DNA of 64,000 nt. Source: Escherichia phage vB_vPM_PD112. The position numbers and the translations under genes were made by a program. The notes under the pieces were generated by a model. The model was given only the letters and a program-made list of their open reading frames with translations, made no database searches and was not told the origin of the DNA. The stretch is from sequence record NC_054928.1; one strand, 5' to 3'. Below, piece after piece: positions 2,070 through 13,274 of the stretch (position 1 is its first letter; each line of letters starts with the position of its first letter).

Positions 2070-2329
2070 AAAAGATTCCTTTTAATGTATCTTTTAGACC
2101 ATTCTATCATATCATCATAATCTAAAAAGTATTCATCAAATTCAGCCATGCAAACAACACCTTGTGCTGCTTTTGATGTGATATAAATTATTCCAACATA
2201 TCTAGAATCTTCTTCGGTGTAATCAATATTTGCTATGAATTCATCGTTAATGTCAAATGTCGAAAACTTCACAGTATGCATCCTTAATACAAGATACAGC
2301 CATATCTCGTAATGATTTAGGTGTGTCAT
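2066..2329 (-). CDS. hypothetical protein (46.1 position)
   Basis: ORF track; overlaps next ORF, true start may be internal Met at 2281. Confidence 0.45.
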   Translation of the reverse strand: MTHLNHYEIWLYLVLRMHTVKFSTFDINDEFIANIDYTEEDSRYVGIIYITSKAAQGVVCMAEFDEYFLDYDDMIEWSKRYIKRNLL

Positions 2330-2516
2330 TATCTAAAATGTTGAAGTTAAAAGATACAGCCCAGTCAGTGCATACCGTAACCTTTTTAATACAATTATCT
2401 TCAACCTCTAGCGGTTCAAACCAATATTCAATAATTTCTTTATGCCCAATATCATCTTTTACTTCGCATTCAAAATGCTGACTCATCATAACATTTTTAA
2501 ATTCATCAAAAGTCAT
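2253..2516 (-). CDS. hypothetical protein (46.2 position)
   Basis: ORF track; ATG start overlapping gp47 stop. Confidence 0.5.
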   Translation of the reverse strand: MTFDEFKNVMMSQHFECEVKDDIGHKEIIEYWFEPLEVEDNCIKKVTVCTDWAVSFNFNILDNDTPKSLRDMAVSCIKDAYCEVFDI

Positions 2517-3532
2517 TGTGTTGCCTCTACATATAACTGATTTGCATATTGAATAAGTGCTTCGCGGTCAGAATCAGTGATGTCTGGAATTGCATTAATG
2601 TATTCTTCCATCAACGTCTGAAGAGATTGAACTTCTACTTCTTCGCTATCATCTGACTCGACAGAGTTATCAATCTTTGACACAACTCGTAATGAATGCA
2701 CAACTTTTTCTAGTTCAGATTCGAACTTCGTTAGATTTTTGTCTACTTCAGTTACTATAACACGTACTGATAGATTTGTAAAATCTTTATAGTCAATTTT
2801 TCCTTTAAATGGATAATGAATTCTACGATGCCAGGTAGTATTGTTTGGAATAAATTCCATTCGTTCTGTTTCTGTATCAAACATCCAGAACCCACGAGGG
2901 TCATTCTCGTCACCTGCAGTTAGTGTCCATGGTGTCCCAATATATCTGACGTTAGCAGCCTCAGAGATAGTATGGAAGTGACCAGACCACACTTCTTTAT
3001 AAGTCTTAAGGAAATCAGGTTCAAGACCGTGAGATTTCATTCCTTTATAAAAATAAAATCCATTCAGTTCCCAGTGACCAACACAAAAGGAAGCAGATGA
3101 AGTTTTAATATGTTCAAGAATTTCACCGGTATTTTCTTCACACATCCAAGGAATTAAATCAATCAAACACCCGTCAAAATCTACTGTAGTAGGCTTATCA
3201 TATACTTTAACATTAGGATATTTAGCCAAAAGCTCAGTAGAAGCATTTGGATGCATTACATTTTTATAGTGGAGATCGTGATTTCCTACAATAGTATGTA
3301 ATGTGATTCCAGCGTCATCAAGCATTTGAACTATTTCACGGGCAAACTCCATAGTTTTATGCGTGATCGCTTTTCGTACATCAAAAATATCACCGTATTG
3401 AATCCAGGTAGTAATTCCATTTTTCTTAGAATATTCTATTGCTTGTTTAATTCCATCAATTTGAATACCGCGAATCCATTCATCATCAGCTTTAACGCCT
3501 AAATGCCAATCACCTAAATTTAAAATTTTCAT
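2513..3532 (-). CDS. 47: recombination endonuclease subunit gp47 (Mre11/SbcD-like phosphoesterase)
   Basis: 339 aa as in T4; calcineurin-like motifs GDWHLG, GDIFD, GNHDL. Confidence 0.9.
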   Translation of the reverse strand: MKILNLGDWHLGVKADDEWIRGIQIDGIKQAIEYSKKNGITTWIQYGDIFDVRKAITHKTMEFAREIVQMLDDAGITLHTIVGNHDLHYKNVMHPNASTELLAKYPNVKVYDKPTTVDFDGCLIDLIPWMCEENTGEILEHIKTSSASFCVGHWELNGFYFYKGMKSHGLEPDFLKTYKEVWSGHFHTISEAANVRYIGTPWTLTAGDENDPRGFWMFDTETERMEFIPNNTTWHRRIHYPFKGKIDYKDFTNLSVRVIVTEVDKNLTKFESELEKVVHSLRVVSKIDNSVESDDSEEVEVQSLQTLMEEYINAIPDITDSDREALIQYANQLYVEATQ

Positions 3533-3708: not shown

Positions 3709-4911
3709 TTATTTTGTAATAATGTCAAACTGCTCTTTAAAGCAGAAGCTTGAATCTTGGTGCTGATACAAAAATTCATAAGCTTTTTCGCGTTCACGGT
3801 CATAAAGAGCTCGGTCAGATGACAGTTCTTTAATACGTTCAAATGTTGATTCCATGTCATTTTCATCAAACCAAACGATACCGCTATCGTGCGAAATTAA
3901 TGGAGTATTATCAACACGGAATTTTAAATTTTCGCCAGTAGATTTCCAAAATACTGGAATTGTTCCACATGCACCAAGCTCGAGATGAGTATATTCTAAA
4001 GAACGCTGTAGATATTTTTTATCTAATTTACTCAGCTGATAACCAAATCCGGATTTACTCATGCGTTCAAGCATTTCGCTATTTACATAACGGTCGAGAA
4101 TTTGCGTCGGCAAATTAGGAGCAATTTTAATTTGGTCTACTTGATGAAGACGATAATACTCGTATGGAATTCCTTTTTCTTTAATAGGAATGAAAGCTGG
4201 AGAACGTTCCAGACCTTCCATAATAGTACTTAGTCCTGCAGGTTTAAGATGTTTTTCGTGAAAATCAAACATCTGATAAAAGCCTTTCCATGTAGTAGTA
4301 CGACCAATCCAACGGTTGATATTCATGTTAATTTCAGAAACATCTTTCCAGTAGGTTGATCGAACCTTCGCAATATCCATAGGAGGCTGAAAGTTATATA
4401 CGGTCGGTGCTTCTTCAATATCATCAAACAGAGAAACAGTTTCCGGATACCATTCTTTCATCAAAACTTTATTAAAGTCACCATTATCAGAATGGCTAAA
4501 AATAACATCAGCTCGACGAACAGTTTCTTCTAATCCCAAATTTCGGCGTAAAGAAAGAGAAGAATGGTCATGCTGATAAACTACAACACGAACCGAAGGT
4601 TTAATGTTATCAATAATTTTTTTATAGTTATTAATAGTGTCTTCTTCTACTGAAGTAGCAGGAACTGAATTGATAATTAGAATATCACAATCATTTACCA
4701 ACTTAAGTGTTTTATCGTATTCTTTTGCCAATAAAACCGGAATTGAAAATGACTTATAATCATGCGCGCAATTACGAGTAAATGATTTATCTTTAGCATA
4801 AACCAAAGTTACTTCATGACCATTTTTAATAAACCAATCACGCTGCTCAAGAGAAAATTTAGTTACACCGCAACCTTCAAGACCTCGAGCCATAAAAATA
4901 CATGCTTTCAT
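3709..4911 (-). CDS. agt: DNA alpha-glucosyltransferase (hmC-DNA glucosylation)
   Basis: 400 aa; near-identical to recalled T4 alpha-gt sequence over its length. Confidence 0.9.
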   Translation of the reverse strand: MKACIFMARGLEGCGVTKFSLEQRDWFIKNGHEVTLVYAKDKSFTRNCAHDYKSFSIPVLLAKEYDKTLKLVNDCDILIINSVPATSVEEDTINNYKKIIDNIKPSVRVVVYQHDHSSLSLRRNLGLEETVRRADVIFSHSDNGDFNKVLMKEWYPETVSLFDDIEEAPTVYNFQPPMDIAKVRSTYWKDVSEINMNINRWIGRTTTWKGFYQMFDFHEKHLKPAGLSTIMEGLERSPAFIPIKEKGIPYEYYRLHQVDQIKIAPNLPTQILDRYVNSEMLERMSKSGFGYQLSKLDKKYLQRSLEYTHLELGACGTIPVFWKSTGENLKFRVDNTPLISHDSGIVWFDENDMESTFERIKELSSDRALYDREREKAYEFLYQHQDSSFCFKEQFDIITK

Positions 4912-5154
4912 TTAATATCCTCATTGTTTTGGTTTATTTTACCAAAAATTTATAAAGCAATATAGGAGCCGAAGCTCCTATCCACATAATACACCATACA
5001 GAGGCTCATTAGAGCTTCTAAATTTTATACGTTTATATGTTATAGTTCCTTCTGCTTTAGCTTTATCATGAGACTCTTTAAAGCGCCTCATCATTTCTAC
5101 TTTAGAGGAACGAATTTTATTATAATCTATTTCAGAAGTCTGGGTGTTCATCTT

Positions 5155-5358
5155 TCACAGTTGCCACCATTTTTTGACTTGATAAGAATCAACCCACACT
5201 TTCATATTAGGGTCTGCTCTTACAATAGGAGGATTAACTTCTTTAATTGAACTATCATGGTATTCTTTTTCAGAAATTTTCACGCAAAGATGACCATTCA
5301 AAGATTCAGTAAATCCTGCATTAATTTTAAGACGCTTGAATTTTACGTGTGTAAGCAT
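5155..5358 (-). CDS. hypothetical protein
   Basis: ORF track (TTG-extended); first ATG is residue 2. Confidence 0.45.
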   Translation of the reverse strand: MLTHVKFKRLKINAGFTESLNGHLCVKISEKEYHDSSIKEVNPPIVRADPNMKVWVDSYQVKKWWQL

Positions 5359-5644
5359 CAATCATATCCTCAATCTGCGATCTAGTAGTCTTCCAAAGAA
5401 TACTGATGAGTTCATCGTTATATGGCTGTTTTAGAATATCCCGACTTTTCTTGATAGCATATTCGTATTGAGCAAAATTATTATTTTCAGCTGCAATCTG
5501 AGCGTGCTTATAAAGACGATTCAGTTCGCGTTTGTTTTTAGACAATAACTTATTTGCTTTTCTTTCTGCTTCAAGACGGTTCTTTTCTTCAATAGAAGAA
5601 ATAAGCTTTTCCACTTCATCATTAATTTCGGGTTTATCAGTCAT
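5327..5644 (-). CDS. hypothetical coiled-coil protein
   Basis: ORF track; ATG start; charged helical sequence. Confidence 0.5.
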   Translation of the reverse strand: MTDKPEINDEVEKLISSIEEKNRLEAERKANKLLSKNKRELNRLYKHAQIAAENNNFAQYEYAIKKSRDILKQPYNDELISILWKTTRSQIEDMIDAYTRKIQAS

Positions 5645-5645
5645 A

Positions 5646-5864
5646 TTATTTCTCTAATATAAAATAAAAATCATCATCTGTTAAATGATACCGATAGTTT
5701 AATTCTACACCATTAGATTTAAAAGCGGTATCATACGGATTTTCTGGATCAATATCAATGTCAAGAGCTAAAACTTCCCTGAGATACATTTTAAGTAAAT
5801 AGGGAATAGCTTCAACTTCAGGTATTTCTTCCAAGAATCCGGAGAGGTTAATCGTTAGCCTCAT
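5646..5864 (-). CDS. hypothetical protein
   Basis: ORF track; ATG start. Confidence 0.5.
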
Positions 5865-6405
5865 ATAAAAAATCCAAACTAGGAGAATCGTCTACAACAC
5901 TTTTCTTTTCAGCCCCCGGTGTTCTATAGGTTGATTCTTCGTAATGCGTCATTTTATCGTAGATGTCTTGAATAAAAGTTTCATCTACTAACGCAACCAT
6001 ATCGTCGTCACGACTGTCATAGACATTGTGAACGAAGTAACTATATTTCTTTGCAACTTCCTTACGTTCTTTTTTAATACGCTGGACGAATGCATTAAAA
6101 CAAGCTTGAGTTATATATGCATGTGGGTTTTTATATTTCGTTTCATCAAAATTATGAAGCCCCTTAATAGAAGCTTCTATACCATCTGCAATCATTTCTT
6201 GTTTCCAAGATTGGGTGTATCCTGAAAAGTTGAAACGTTTAGATAAGCCTTCTGCAATAAGCATAATGGCTAATCCGATAGTATCATTCTGACGAACTAC
6301 TTTATTTGGGTCTTTATTATTTGCTAATTCTGTTTTCCAATCAATAATAGCTTGTAAAAGCTCTTTATTGTTTACGTAATTATATTTAGGCTTAGTTTCT
6401 GACAT
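5848..6405 (-). CDS. 55: late-transcription sigma factor gp55
   Basis: Track ORF is 187 aa from GTG; ATG at residue 3 gives 185 aa as in T4 gp55; GAGGTG SD upstream. Confidence 0.85.
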
Positions 6406-6483
6406 TTTCACCTCTTAGCTCAATTCATAGATCTATTATATCATAATATTTTAAGATCTATCTTAAAGCATAGAGGATATCAG

Positions 6484-9253: not shown

Positions 9254-9724
9254 TTAATCATGTTTCCACACCCCATCGGTATTTGACCAAAGTCGCTGAT
9301 TATCTGATCCTCGCCACAGCTTTTTGGTCGGAAGATTTTTCTCATACTTCCCATCAATAATAACATCAACATATTTAAGCATTTCTAGTTGTTTAATATC
9401 TTCAAACTTATATCCTGTCCACAACCAAATGCTTTTATTGGGATAAAGATTTTTTACTGTTTGAACAATGCAATGAACATCATCTCGGTTATCAGGATAA
9501 AGAGGGTCTCCTCCAGTTATAGTTAATCCTTCTATATAATCATTATTCAAACATTCAATTAATTGTTCTAGTGTTTCACCAGTGAATGGAACGCCATTTC
9601 TAGCATTCCATGTTGATTTATTATAACACCCTTCACATTTATGCAAACACCCCGTAACGAAAAGAACGACCCTGCATCCAGGGCCATTTACAAAGCAGCA
9701 CGGGTATATTCTGTCATAATTCAT
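9254..9724 (-). CDS. nrdG: anaerobic ribonucleotide reductase activating protein NrdG (radical SAM)
   Basis: CxxxCxxC cluster (CLHKCEGC); ATG at residue 8 gives 156 aa as in T4. Confidence 0.85.
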   Translation of the reverse strand: MNYDRIYPCCFVNGPGCRVVLFVTGCLHKCEGCYNKSTWNARNGVPFTGETLEQLIECLNNDYIEGLTITGGDPLYPDNRDDVHCIVQTVKNLYPNKSIWLWTGYKFEDIKQLEMLKYVDVIIDGKYEKNLPTKKLWRGSDNQRLWSNTDGVWKHD

Positions 9725-9963
9725 AATAATATCCAATTTTTCCAAGCTTCATCAGTAGAATTACAGCGTTTTAGTATAAGATGTCTAGAAACTTTTATGG
9801 CATTTGAGCACTTTTTAATTGAATCATATTTTAATAAAGCGGCACGAATCAATGTTCCTGACCCCATATAACCGTCATTTATGTTATCGGTGCTATGCGC
9901 ACCGATATATTCCTTTGAATTAATTATATTTGTTATTTTATAAATTATATAATACCTATGCAT
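9721..9963 (-). CDS. GIY-YIG nuclease domain-only ORF (truncated seg-like homing endonuclease remnant)
   Basis: 80 aa with YIIYKITN...EYIGAHST motif similar to segB N-terminus; no DNA-binding domain; overlaps nrdD 3' end by 8 nt. Confidence 0.55.
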   Translation of the reverse strand: MHRYYIIYKITNIINSKEYIGAHSTDNINDGYMGSGTLIRAALLKYDSIKKCSNAIKVSRHLILKRCNSTDEAWKNWILL

Positions 9964-11773
9964 GTTTTACTCGTTTTACCATTTCTTTCATTTTACCTAA
10001 ATTCCATGGAACAACGCTAGGAGTTCCAAGATATCCGCATGTTCTTCTTATGGTGTTCATCTTTTTAGGATCAGTTTCTCCACAAATAGAACAAACAAAT
10101 CCGTTCTCGGTTGGAGTCATTTCATGGGTACTTCCACACGTAAAACATTTATCTACTGGCATATTAACGCCAAAATAATCTAAATGTTGTGCAGCATAAT
10201 CCCATACAGCCTCAAGGCCTTTTAGGTTATTTTTCATATCAGGAAGTTCAACATAAGAAATGTGACCGCCTGTCGCGATGAAATGATATGGGGCTTCGCG
10301 AGAAATCTTTTCAAATGGAGTAATATTTTCTTCTACTGAAACGTGGAAACTGTTAGTGTACCAGCCTTTATCAGTAACATCTTTTACACTTCCATATTTT
10401 TCGGTATCAAGTTTACAGAAGCGATAGCACAGGTTTTCAGCAGGAGTAGAATACAAGCTAAAAGCAAATCCGGTTCTTTCAGTCCACTGCTTAAGATGAG
10501 TATTCATTTTAGTTAAAATTTCTTGTCCAATATCACGACCGACAAGAATATTCAATTCGTGAATACCAATGTATCCTAGGGACACTGAACTTCTACCATT
10601 TTTAAATAACTCAATTATATCGTCATCAGGTTTAAGACGAACCCCGAATGCACCTTCCTGGTAAAGAATAGGAGCAACAGTAGCTTTAACTCCTTTTAAG
10701 GAACTAATTCTACACATCAATGCTTCAAAACATAAATCCATTCGTTCATTGAACAATTCGGCAAATTTCTGTTCATTGAACTGTGTTCCAATATAAGAAT
10801 CTAATGCAATACGAGGAAGATTCAGTGTTACAACACCAAGATTATTACGTCCATCAAGAATTTCATTACCAGTCGAATCTTTCCATACGCCCAAGAAACT
10901 ACGGCAACCCATTGGAGAAACAGGAATAGATGAACCGGTGATAGCTTTATTGTTCTTAGCCGAAATGATGTCAGGATACATTCTTTTGCTTGCGCACTCT
11001 AAAGCAAGCTGCTTAATATCATAGTTCGGATCGTCTTTATAAAGATTAACACCTTCTTCAACGAACATAACAAGTTTAGGGAAAATAGGAGTTATCCCAT
11101 CACGACCGAGACCTTTAATACGATTTTTCAGAATTGCTTTCTGAATCATTCGTTCAGTCCAGTCAGTTCCCGTACCAAATGTAATTGTTACAAAAGGAGT
11201 TTGTCCGTTTGAACTAAAGAGAGTATTTACTTCATATTCATAAGCTTGGAACGCATCGTATACGTCTTTTTCTGTTTTAGATTGGGCATAATTCAACGCA
11301 TCAGTGATTTGCCATTTTTCCGCGTCCTCAATATGTTTCGCATAGGTGCGTTTAACATAAGGAGAAAGTACTTTATCTACATTCGCAAAAGTCGTTCCGC
11401 CATATTGATGAGAAGCAACCTGTGCAGTAATTTGTGCCATAATTGCAGTAGCAACGCCAATTGATTTAGGAGTTTCAATCTGTGCATTACCGAGCTTAAA
11501 TCCGTTCTCAAGCATTCCTTTTAAATCTACTAAACAGCAATTAGTAAAAGGCAATGATATACTGTAATCTAAATCATGAAAATGAATTAACCCGGCATTA
11601 TGAGCATTTACAATATGGCTTGGAAGAATACTGCAAGCGATATGTTTAGAAACAATACCGGCCATTAAATCTCTTTTTGTTGGAAAGACACGAGAATCTT
11701 TGTTGGCGTTTTCGGTATTTAATTCTTTATCTTTATTTGAAATAAAATTTAAAACATCTTTCTCTAAAGACAT
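9956..11773 (-). CDS. nrdD: anaerobic ribonucleoside-triphosphate reductase NrdD (glycyl radical enzyme)
   Basis: 605 aa continuous ORF; C-terminal glycyl radical motif RRTCGY and Zn-ribbon cysteines. Confidence 0.9.
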   Translation of the reverse strand: MSLEKDVLNFISNKDKELNTENANKDSRVFPTKRDLMAGIVSKHIACSILPSHIVNAHNAGLIHFHDLDYSISLPFTNCCLVDLKGMLENGFKLGNAQIETPKSIGVATAIMAQITAQVASHQYGGTTFANVDKVLSPYVKRTYAKHIEDAEKWQITDALNYAQSKTEKDVYDAFQAYEYEVNTLFSSNGQTPFVTITFGTGTDWTERMIQKAILKNRIKGLGRDGITPIFPKLVMFVEEGVNLYKDDPNYDIKQLALECASKRMYPDIISAKNNKAITGSSIPVSPMGCRSFLGVWKDSTGNEILDGRNNLGVVTLNLPRIALDSYIGTQFNEQKFAELFNERMDLCFEALMCRISSLKGVKATVAPILYQEGAFGVRLKPDDDIIELFKNGRSSVSLGYIGIHELNILVGRDIGQEILTKMNTHLKQWTERTGFAFSLYSTPAENLCYRFCKLDTEKYGSVKDVTDKGWYTNSFHVSVEENITPFEKISREAPYHFIATGGHISYVELPDMKNNLKGLEAVWDYAAQHLDYFGVNMPVDKCFTCGSTHEMTPTENGFVCSICGETDPKKMNTIRRTCGYLGTPSVVPWNLGKMKEMVKRVKHA

Positions 11774-12585
11774 AATTCTAATTTATCCTTTTGAAATTCT
11801 TCGTCTAAATATGGGTTCCAACCCATTTTAAACCTTTTGATGAAATTATCAATTCTAAATTTCGGTAAGTTTAAATCCGCAAAAATAGATGATTTACTTT
11901 TAAAATCTGGACCTAAATAATCATATAAAATTTCTGCGTATTTTAACCATAATATATAAGTACCAGATTTAATTGCTCTCGGAGTTTTCCAAGGTTTTAC
12001 ACCATACATCGGATTTCCACTTCCTTTATGCCTGATAGAAGATGAAATTCCAATTTTAATTTTAGCTTCCTCTGTATGCGAAAATCCATGATGTGGATTT
12101 TCTTTCCAGTATTTTTTAGAAGCTTCTGATATTTTCTTTCTGGCTAAATTAGTATGATGCTTTCCATAAAATCCATGATTTTTACCTTTATTACGATTTC
12201 TTTTAATCATGGTTATTGATTGCTTTTTTCTAGTTTCTTTAGAAGGAGAAACACCGTATGTTGTAAATTGACCATTAGCATATGCTAAATTAAAATACTC
12301 TTTATTCCATATATCTTTTTCTATATTCTTTTGAAATTCAGCTTCAATGCTAGTTATTTGCTCATCTCCGACTAATTGAAAATATAATATTTCAACTTTC
12401 GGCGTTTCTTTCAACAGGGCTTTTTGAAATTCGGAAGATGACGAAGACGAATAATAAAATTTACCATTTTTATCAATAATATTCGTTCCGTCAAAAGTGC
12501 AATTGGTTTTACTTCCAATATAATAATACGGCGGGGTTTTAGCATTAATTCTACTAATAAATGATAGTTTATATACTACATTCAT
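11764..12585 (-). CDS. putative GIY-YIG family homing endonuclease with NUMOD3-like repeats
   Basis: N-terminal VVYKL...YYYIGSKTN (degenerate GIY-YIG); repeated GxxHxxExKxKIS-like motifs. Confidence 0.55.
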   Translation of the reverse strand: MNVVYKLSFISRINAKTPPYYYIGSKTNCTFDGTNIIDKNGKFYYSSSSSSEFQKALLKETPKVEILYFQLVGDEQITSIEAEFQKNIEKDIWNKEYFNLAYANGQFTTYGVSPSKETRKKQSITMIKRNRNKGKNHGFYGKHHTNLARKKISEASKKYWKENPHHGFSHTEEAKIKIGISSSIRHKGSGNPMYGVKPWKTPRAIKSGTYILWLKYAEILYDYLGPDFKSKSSIFADLNLPKFRIDNFIKRFKMGWNPYLDEEFQKDKLELCL

Positions 12586-13055
12586 TTTAAACTCTTTCTA
12601 AGCTGCTTCTTAAATGAAGCTATTAATTGTGTTTTGGTGTCAGATTCATTATATTCAAATCCTCTTTGAAGCATCTCAGCCATCATTTCCTCTTTTCCTA
12701 AACGAGAAAATTCCTTTGATTTATCTCCAACGAAGTTAGGGTGAATATTATTTTGGGTGTAATCGGATTTTAAATAAGTAAGTAAATTTTCTAACCATTC
12801 AAGATAATCAACGCCTTGTCCCTTTAAGCCAGAACGATTAAATTTGTGTTTCATTTGACCTTCTGCAGCATTACACAGATTACAAAGCAATCCACGTACC
12901 TTTCCAGCTTTCGGTCCATTTAATTCATGGTCATGGTCAAGGTGATTAGCTTGAACATCAGGATTTAGTTCTCGTTGGCAAATTAAGCATTTACCGTTTT
13001 GTGCATTATAAAATTTTTGTTTTTCTTCTTTGTATAATTTGCCAGTCAATAACAT
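12582..13055 (-). CDS. 49: endonuclease VII (Holliday junction resolvase) gp49
   Basis: 157 aa as in T4; Zn-binding cysteines and HLDHDHELNG catalytic region. Confidence 0.9.
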   Translation of the reverse strand: MLLTGKLYKEEKQKFYNAQNGKCLICQRELNPDVQANHLDHDHELNGPKAGKVRGLLCNLCNAAEGQMKHKFNRSGLKGQGVDYLEWLENLLTYLKSDYTQNNIHPNFVGDKSKEFSRLGKEEMMAEMLQRGFEYNESDTKTQLIASFKKQLRKSLK

Positions 13056-13097: not shown

Positions 13098-13274
13098 TCA
13101 AGTATTGTAAAACATTCGATGCAATCGCTTATATTGTCGAATCATCTTTTTAGTAGGACGAGAATAAGTTCCTACACAAGTGGTCATATTAGGGTCAGTA
13201 GGACTTCCTTTAATAAAAAGTTTCCAGACTTTACCACCATTTAACTTTTCAGTATAAATCAATTCAGTTTTCAT
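13098..13274 (-). CDS. small hypothetical ORF (about 58 aa, below track cutoff)
   Basis: Hand translation; ATG overlaps upstream stop; fills gap before gene 49. Confidence 0.3.
   Translation of the reverse strand: MKTELIYTEKLNGGKVWKLFIKGSPTDPNMTTCVGTYSRPTKKMIRQYKRLHRMFYNT

Follow-up and report, generated by a model that had tools for sequence, protein, structure and literature searches.

The 64,000-nucleotide (nt) stretch of Escherichia phage vB_vPM_PD112 studied here (sequence record NC_054928.1; hereafter the window) carries an open reading frame (ORF) of 273 amino acids (aa) between gene 49 and nrdD, and this ORF is likely a functional free-standing homing endonuclease gene of the SegG family, of a divergent GIY-YIG type. 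An earlier note on this DNA had proposed that a NUMOD3-bearing, free-standing homing endonuclease gene is inserted at this junction, and the analysis supports that proposal. Judged by its sequence, the protein is a member of PHROG 7504, the SegG family, and a paralogue of T4 SegG at another site; it is not a segG orthologue, because its locus is 49/nrdD and not 59/32.

The gene 49/nrdD junction

The endonuclease gene occupies positions 11764-12585 on the minus strand, with an ATG start and a stop codon at 11764-11766 in the ORF list, as the earlier note had it. The ORF matches PHROG 7504, 314 and 655 ('homing endonuclease'). GenBank records annotate it as 'homing endonuclease', once as 'SegG' (phage JK42) and once as '24.6 kDa protein'; the label in the JK42 record is a family name at best. 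Its upstream neighbour is gene 49 (endonuclease VII; 12582-13055, minus strand), identified by Pfam PF02945 (Endonuclease_7, 8e-22) and PF09124 (dimerisation domain, 1.5e-33). The downstream neighbour and presumed target is nrdD (9956-11773, minus strand), which encodes the large subunit of the anaerobic ribonucleotide reductase and matches the Pfam families NRDD (1e-170) and Gly_radical.

The endonuclease gene had been said to overlap both neighbours by a few nucleotides, and the overlaps are 4 nt with gene 49 and 10 nt with nrdD. The endonuclease ATG and the gene 49 TGA share the sequence ATGA (12582-12585, minus strand), and the final 10 nt of the endonuclease gene (11764-11773) cover the start of nrdD, including its ATG. 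The junction was also expected to be empty in T4, and this holds for T4, T2 and T6, in all of which gene 49 and nrdD overlap directly by 4 nt with no gene in between. The insertion point of the endonuclease gene is the same ATGA that links the two genes in these phages. Alignment of the window with T4 runs through the ATGA, is followed by 813 additional bases and then resumes in nrdD. All endonuclease-free loci have the junction ...TTTAAAATGA(C/A)AATTGAA, and gene 49 of the window is near-identical to that of endonuclease-free sister genomes up to the ATGA.

Protein family and domain plan

Comparison with T4 SegG by BLASTP gave 40% identity over 128 aa (E 5e-27), and a tblastn search of phage genomes likewise gave 40% identity for aa 1-126. 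The PHROG 7504 profile matches the protein in two stretches (E 9e-34), with aa 1-126 on profile positions 1-124, and the C-terminal 81 aa by themselves match positions 133-206 (E 4.7e-5). T4 SegG fits the same profile end to end (positions 1-210, 1.3e-133). Between the two stretches lies the sole Pfam match of the protein, NUMOD3 (PF07460; E 1.1e-8, 35.2 bits against a gathering cut-off of 20.4), itself in two stretches. The family profile also matches residues 30-74 of the I-TevI DNA-binding domain (1i3j) over these modules (E 2.4e-4), and the repeated GxxHxxE..KIS modules of the earlier note are therefore genuine NUMOD3 repeats. With PHROG 7504 matched at both ends and NUMOD3 in between, the sequence matches indicate that the protein is built from a SegG N-domain, two inserted NUMOD3 modules and a SegG-type C-domain.

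The N-terminal SegG-like domain comprises aa 1-110 (12256-12585, minus strand; 40% identity to T4 SegG aa 1-124), and would be catalytic. The linker with the two NUMOD3 modules extends over aa ~111-195 (12001-12255, minus strand) and would serve as an extended DNA-contacting region. The C-terminal domain, aa ~196-273 (11767-12000, minus strand), is common to P0002 and P0004 and, by analogy, is presumed to be the target-specific DNA-binding module that reads the target. Profile and sequence searches with this domain (81 aa) gave no match in Pfam or the PDB.

Distribution and transfer between genera

A total of 695 phage records match the 1.6-kb region and 47 hold all of it, and 48 phage records have the endonuclease protein at 90% aa identity or higher. 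The carriers belong to two genera; most are Tequatrovirus, and JK42, phage 55 and AV111 are Mosigvirus. Compared with the window, these three phages are 70-85% identical in gene 49 up to about nt 360, 96-100% identical in the endonuclease gene and in nrdD up to nt 225-240, and about 90-95% identical in the remainder of nrdD. Their endonuclease-free sisters L016 and L017 nearly match them across gene 49 and across nrdD past nt 240. The same block has been transferred between the two genera with identical boundaries, and because it is near-identical while its flanks are 70-85% identical, the spread appears recent. These comparisons point to a mobile block of ~1.04 kb (window 11549-12581), larger than the ORF itself and made up of the endonuclease gene and 225 nt of nrdD.

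The endonuclease gene is under purifying selection. Among seven alleles the ratio of nonsynonymous to synonymous substitution rates (dN/dS) is 0.05-0.38 in all pairs but one (0.84, with nine substitutions). Decay is seen in the allele of Pu-Krd-SF4 (L050, 2501-3238), in which a 1-nt insertion near the 3' end cuts off the last ~28 aa. The sister record Pu-Krd-SF3 has the same region match and may share this frameshift.

Two other accounts of the transfer were rejected. Import of the whole nrdD-nrdG module into Mosigvirus with the endonuclease gene does not fit the loci that lack nrdD after gene 49, which are not close to JK42 (gene 49 about 80% identical), and the endonuclease-free L016 and L017 (gene 49 near-matching the Mosigvirus carriers), L020 and L027 already have nrdD. 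A co-converted tract upstream, in gene 49, is unsupported, since the 3' end of that gene is equally window-like in the endonuclease-free L016 and L017.

The linked nrdD tract and the predicted target

The part of nrdD that travels with the endonuclease gene is a replacement of nt 1-225 (codons 1-75; window 11549-11773, minus strand), defined by mismatch comparison in six endonuclease-plus/minus pairs from two genera. Within the pairs nrdD differs at 82-86 positions of nt 1-225 and at 12-19 of nt 226-480, so that divergence from endonuclease-free alleles is about 37% in the first 225 nt and about 5% beyond. In Tequatrovirus, the window, Lutter and L008 differ from the endonuclease-free L004, L006 and L007 at 82-85 positions of nt 1-225 and at 12-14 of nt 226-480. 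In Mosigvirus, carriers differ from L016 and L017 at 83-86 of the first 225 positions. The last dense mismatch stands at nt 225 in every one of the six pairs, right before the invariant TTTACTAATTG(C/T)TGT that encodes F-T-N-C79-C80. A search of the whole collection for the variant tract gave 48 records at 95% identity or more, followed by Klebsiella phages at 76%. Linkage to the endonuclease gene is read from record counts, 48 with the tract and 48 with the gene, which were compared as totals and not in a one-to-one table.

We infer from these data a homing cycle that involves DNA cleavage, a defined cut position and immunity from the variant nrdD segment. When the phage shares a host cell with an endonuclease-free relative, its enzyme would cut the nrdD of this rival near nt 165-225, by the Cys79 codons. 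Phage recombination would mend the break from the endonuclease-carrying genome, and the repair would copy both the endonuclease gene and the 225-nt variant 5' segment of nrdD, and this segment would render carriers resistant to cutting. Every homing event would co-convert the DNA that lies between the point of insertion and the cut; DNA past the cut would be converted only sometimes and would be re-assorted with each new host background. A boundary that is constant at nt 225 in two genera would thus place the cut at or just before this position.

A second arrangement that bears on the target is found in L054 (Logan contig SRR27536177, metagenomic, 4.7 kb). Here gene 49 is followed by a 55-codon (165-nt) remnant of the resident nrdD, which is Proteus-phage-like. 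Downstream of the remnant, at 2188-3180, lies an endonuclease orthologue (58% aa identity) that is broken after about aa 49, and a complete nrdD with a 5' end of the endonuclease-linked type follows. The arrangement looks like an insertion into nrdD near nt 165 with repair that did not use homology on the gene 49 side. L054 is a single short contig and may be a misassembly. On the basis of the constant haplotype boundary and the L054 remnant, we tentatively place the cleavage or recognition zone at nrdD nt ~165-225 of endonuclease-free alleles, beside the active-site Cys79 codons, a prediction to which we give somewhat less than even weight. Its counterpart in the window would be 11549-11609 (minus strand), just upstream of the Cys79-Cys80 codons (TNCC).

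Is the N-terminal domain a GIY-YIG nuclease?

The earlier note had described a degenerate N-terminal GIY-YIG motif (VVYKL...YYYIGSK). This stood as a SegG-family domain; it did not stand as a domain that the Pfam GIY-YIG models recognise. Twelve residues are invariant in 21 family members (Y5, R12, P19, Y22, G24, S25, K26, Y44, S47, E81, N99 and A103), and the window protein keeps them all. They include the 'GIY' tyrosine (Y5) and the 'YIG' Y22-x-G24. Alignment of profiles with hhalign against classical GIY-YIG proteins, a set made of the hits bearing PF01541 and the I-TevI sequence, placed E81 on I-TevI E75 and N99 on N90 (E 7e-5, probability 63%). In the extended alignment, Y5 falls on I-TevI Y6 and Y22-x-G24 on Y17-x-G19. 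An AlphaFold (AF2) model of aa 1-110 has a predicted local distance difference test score (pLDDT) of 88 and a predicted template modelling score (pTM) of 0.81. The order of elements in the model is b-b-a-b-a-a (b, strand; a, helix), with inserts after strands 1 and 2, an order that agrees with GIY-YIG as far as the model goes. T4 SegG has been reported as an active GIY-YIG enzyme with gene 32 as its target (PMC2988022 Table 1; SegG also PMC2330249). By sequence the window protein would thus be filed in a family that the literature classes as GIY-YIG, with an arginine at the canonical position lacking.

Several results weigh against a functional endonuclease of the GIY-YIG type with the target proposed here. 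Neither Pfam GIY-YIG (PF01541) nor SegE_GIY-YIG (PF19835) matches the N-domain even at E<=10. A Foldseek search of the PDB with the confident N-domain model returned no GIY-YIG structure. Foldseek against BFVD listed the protein's own family first and then mostly proteins annotated as GIY-YIG or Seg-like, and these matches are weak (E 0.1-2, template modelling (TM) score 0.45-0.55, probability up to 0.93), with TM scores of 0.53-0.55 for hits to GIY-YIG proteins. No conserved basic residue stands at the I-TevI Arg27 position (start of helix 1) across the SegG clade. A run of six serines, S46-S51 (12433-12450, minus strand), is found where 12 of 19 relatives have GSS(K/R). The T4 late promoter TATAAATA is absent from the region, and sigma-70-like promoter matches occur at chance level (13 found against 9.5 expected). 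Support for the cleavage zone consists of haplotype boundaries and one 4.7-kb metagenomic contig.

The first of these points must be read with T4 SegG in mind, which likewise has no Pfam match. Both NUMOD3 and GIY-YIG had been expected on profile search; NUMOD3 was found and GIY-YIG was not, yet the absence is uninformative as a refutation because the Pfam models miss T4 SegG too. Two further searches of the PDB gave little: a Foldseek search with the full-length model (mean pLDDT 63.5) returned only noise, and a sequence-profile search found the I-TevI linker and not the I-TevI catalytic domain. Around the region aligned with Arg27 the window protein has S49, E52 and Q54, and its relatives vary. 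Unlike the canonical arginine site, Arg12 (in the b1-b2 insert) and Lys26 do not vary within the family. The serine run is common to the whole clade of 48 records.

It is possible that the SegG clade is a rearranged form of GIY-YIG, in which the catalytic arginine has moved to the b1-b2 insert (Arg12) or has been replaced by Lys26. Joined to recognition of nrdD beside the Cys79 codons by the window protein and to a role of the 225-nt nrdD segment as a portable immunity allele, this makes a combined claim that we regard as rather doubtful taken as a whole. A rearranged active-site arginine would account for the failure of curated profiles and PDB fold searches to pick up the SegG clade.

The alternative that best survives these results, although an unlikely one, is that the gene is a dead or decaying relic that no longer homes and is kept since nrdD needs its ribosome site and 5' segment. 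The missing canonical arginine, the serine run in place of the GSS(K/R) of most relatives and the absent Pfam GIY-YIG match would all fit a relic, as would the putative ribosome site of nrdD inside the ORF. Decay is on record in the frameshifted Pu-Krd-SF4 allele and the broken L054 orthologue, and segH, nearby in the window, is already an internal-deletion remnant. However, nearly all of the 48 records carry an intact ORF, dN/dS across its full length is about 0.2, every family-invariant residue is retained, and the near-identical block in two genera indicates recent spread. T4 SegG, moreover, has the same motif pattern and is active (PMC2988022).

It is considered quite improbable that the protein has some other, unrecognised nuclease fold and resembles GIY-YIG only in its motif pattern, which would make the gene a homing endonuclease but not a GIY-YIG one. 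Such a fold would account for the lack of any Pfam, PDB sequence or PDB fold match to a GIY-YIG catalytic domain and for the invariance of Arg12 and Lys26 where the canonical arginine site varies. Against it, the order of secondary-structure elements fits GIY-YIG, the profile-profile alignment puts four catalytic or structural residues in register, and the BFVD list beyond the protein's own family is mostly GIY-YIG or Seg-like. In addition, SegE-like GIY-YIG proteins (P0035) align over the full N-domain, and the NCBIfam model for group I intron endonucleases, TIGR01453, is matched below its threshold (24.1 bits against a cut-off of 56, E 3.1e-5, aa 63-184).

I-TevI can auto-repress, and a sequence-specific DNA-binding regulator with no nuclease function, such as a NUMOD3-based repressor of nrdD or gene 49, would suit the credited matches to a solved DNA-binding structure (confined to the NUMOD3 and C-terminal part), the want of a nuclease fold match in the PDB and a start codon within a modest hairpin (z -2.2) like those of regulated T4 endonuclease genes, but it is hardly credible, as the N-domain is the best conserved in the family, with invariant Y, Y-x-G, E and N in GIY-YIG catalytic order, and as a regulator leaves the patchy distribution, the transfer between genera and the linked nrdD replacement unexplained.

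Expression signals

The functional SegG-family endonuclease favoured here would have to be expressed from its context, and we infer that its gene is a promoter-less cassette. A Shine-Dalgarno-like AAGAG (12592-12596, minus strand) lies 6 nt before the endonuclease ATG and would serve, by its position, nrdD in T4-type genomes. An AAGGA (11786-11790, minus strand) lies within the last endonuclease codons (..FQKDK..), 12 nt before the nrdD ATG, and the same AAGGA precedes nrdD by 7 nt in the L054 orthologue. The endonuclease gene thus appears to take over the AAGAG of nrdD, and nrdD would receive AAGGA as a replacement from the endonuclease tail. Some T4 endonuclease genes are translationally regulated by a hairpin at their start. 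A predicted mRNA hairpin in the window (12546-12645, minus strand; minimum free energy -16.2 kcal/mol, z -2.2) contains the endonuclease AUG, and translation of the gene may be damped in the same way. Promoter-less cassettes have also been reported for segC, segF, segG and several mob genes (PMC2988022).

Comparison with known endonuclease genes

The nearest known system is T4 SegG (gene 32.1, between genes 59 and 32). The N-domains are 40% identical and PHROG 7504 matches both ends of the two proteins. Both genes are promoter-less free-standing cassettes in the orientation of their neighbours, directly upstream of the target gene (presumed for the window), and both are missed by Pfam. In contrast to T4 SegG, the window gene lies at 49/nrdD and not 59/32, and its presumed target is nrdD and not gene 32. 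The window protein is 63 aa longer, with two NUMOD3 modules between the domains, and similarity in the C-terminal part is seen at profile level only.

I-TevI, from the T4 td intron, is similar in having a catalytic domain, an extended linker and a C-terminal DNA-binding domain. The NUMOD3 region of the window protein matches its DNA-binding domain structure (1i3j), and the Tyr, Tyr-x-Gly, Glu and Asn residues align. I-TevI is intron-encoded, whereas the window gene is free-standing, and the window protein has b1/b2 and b2/a1 inserts and no equivalent of Arg27. No similarity to the zinc finger or the helix-turn-helix of I-TevI was detectable in the window protein.

Other endonucleases occupy or target the anaerobic reductase genes, namely SegH (T6, U5 and PP01) and MobC (T4) at the nrdD/nrdG junction and I-TevII in the nrdD intron of T4. 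SegH and MobC differ from the window gene in insertion site, the window gene lying at the 5' end of nrdD, and in family, SegH being a SegE-like classical GIY-YIG protein and MobC an HNH protein. SegF, a free-standing GIY-YIG endonuclease between soc and 56 in T4, cuts the neighbouring T2 gene and brings about localised marker exclusion (PMC2330249), and the window endonuclease is proposed to behave in this way. SegF differs in that its activity has been demonstrated experimentally, and no specific sequence relationship between the two was found.

Significance

In the literature searched no paper was found that describes this endonuclease gene or that joins homing endonuclease, nrdD and Tequatrovirus, and the reviews consulted list no endonuclease gene at the 49/nrdD junction. 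The gene is a new, uncharacterised addition to a known class of mobile genes, ordinary in kind and unusually well delimited. After the I-TevII intron, MobC and SegH, it is a fourth kind of endonuclease gene in the nrdD-nrdG region, which reinforces the view of ribonucleotide reductase genes as preferred targets. The ~1-kb block with identical boundaries in two genera is a natural experiment that leads to testable predictions of a cleavage zone and a portable immunity allele. Annotators should note that the Pfam GIY-YIG models overlook SegG-type catalytic domains and that a 'SegG' label at this locus should be read as family and not as orthology. For structural specialists, the sole feature of possible interest is that the whole family lacks the canonical arginine and has Arg12 and Lys26 as invariant residues. 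In the engineering of T4-like phages and in therapy cocktails, such genes would bias which alleles of the nrdD region survive co-infection.

Neighbouring and related loci

Between nrdD and nrdG, an 80-aa ORF in the window (9721-9963, minus strand) is an in-frame internal-deletion remnant of segH. Compared with T6 SegH (276 aa), ~577 nt have been lost between short repeats, and what remains is the GIY...YIG...YMGSG start with the final ~34 aa. The nrdD of the window is thus flanked by one dead and one intact endonuclease gene. On the other side, between gene 49 and pin, a 58-aa ORF (13098-13274, minus strand; PHROG 3272, unknown function) lies in a ~200-nt segment that is absent in T4, L004, L005, L006 and L008 and present in L007, a presence/absence polymorphism.

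In the endonuclease-plus genome L005 (IMG/VR UViG_2974742932, 169,650 bp; 4283-6470), nrdD is interrupted for ~1 kb after codon ~180. This may be an intron of the I-TevII type, and L005 may therefore have two different mobile elements in or at nrdD. Other T4-like phages, including L009-L012, L014, L018, L019, L022, L025 and L031, have no nrdD/nrdG after gene 49; in these lineages the genes immediately downstream of it encode a 55.8-like membrane protein and an nrdH-like glutaredoxin. A paralogue of the endonuclease, P0003 (273 aa), is found in another T4-like phage (L052, ENA ERZ13617658, 90 kb; 4001-4822) between the gp5 lysozyme gene and a Y07E-like gene. Its N-domain is 56% identical and its C-terminal half is different, which suggests the same catalytic domain joined to another DNA-binding part at another site.

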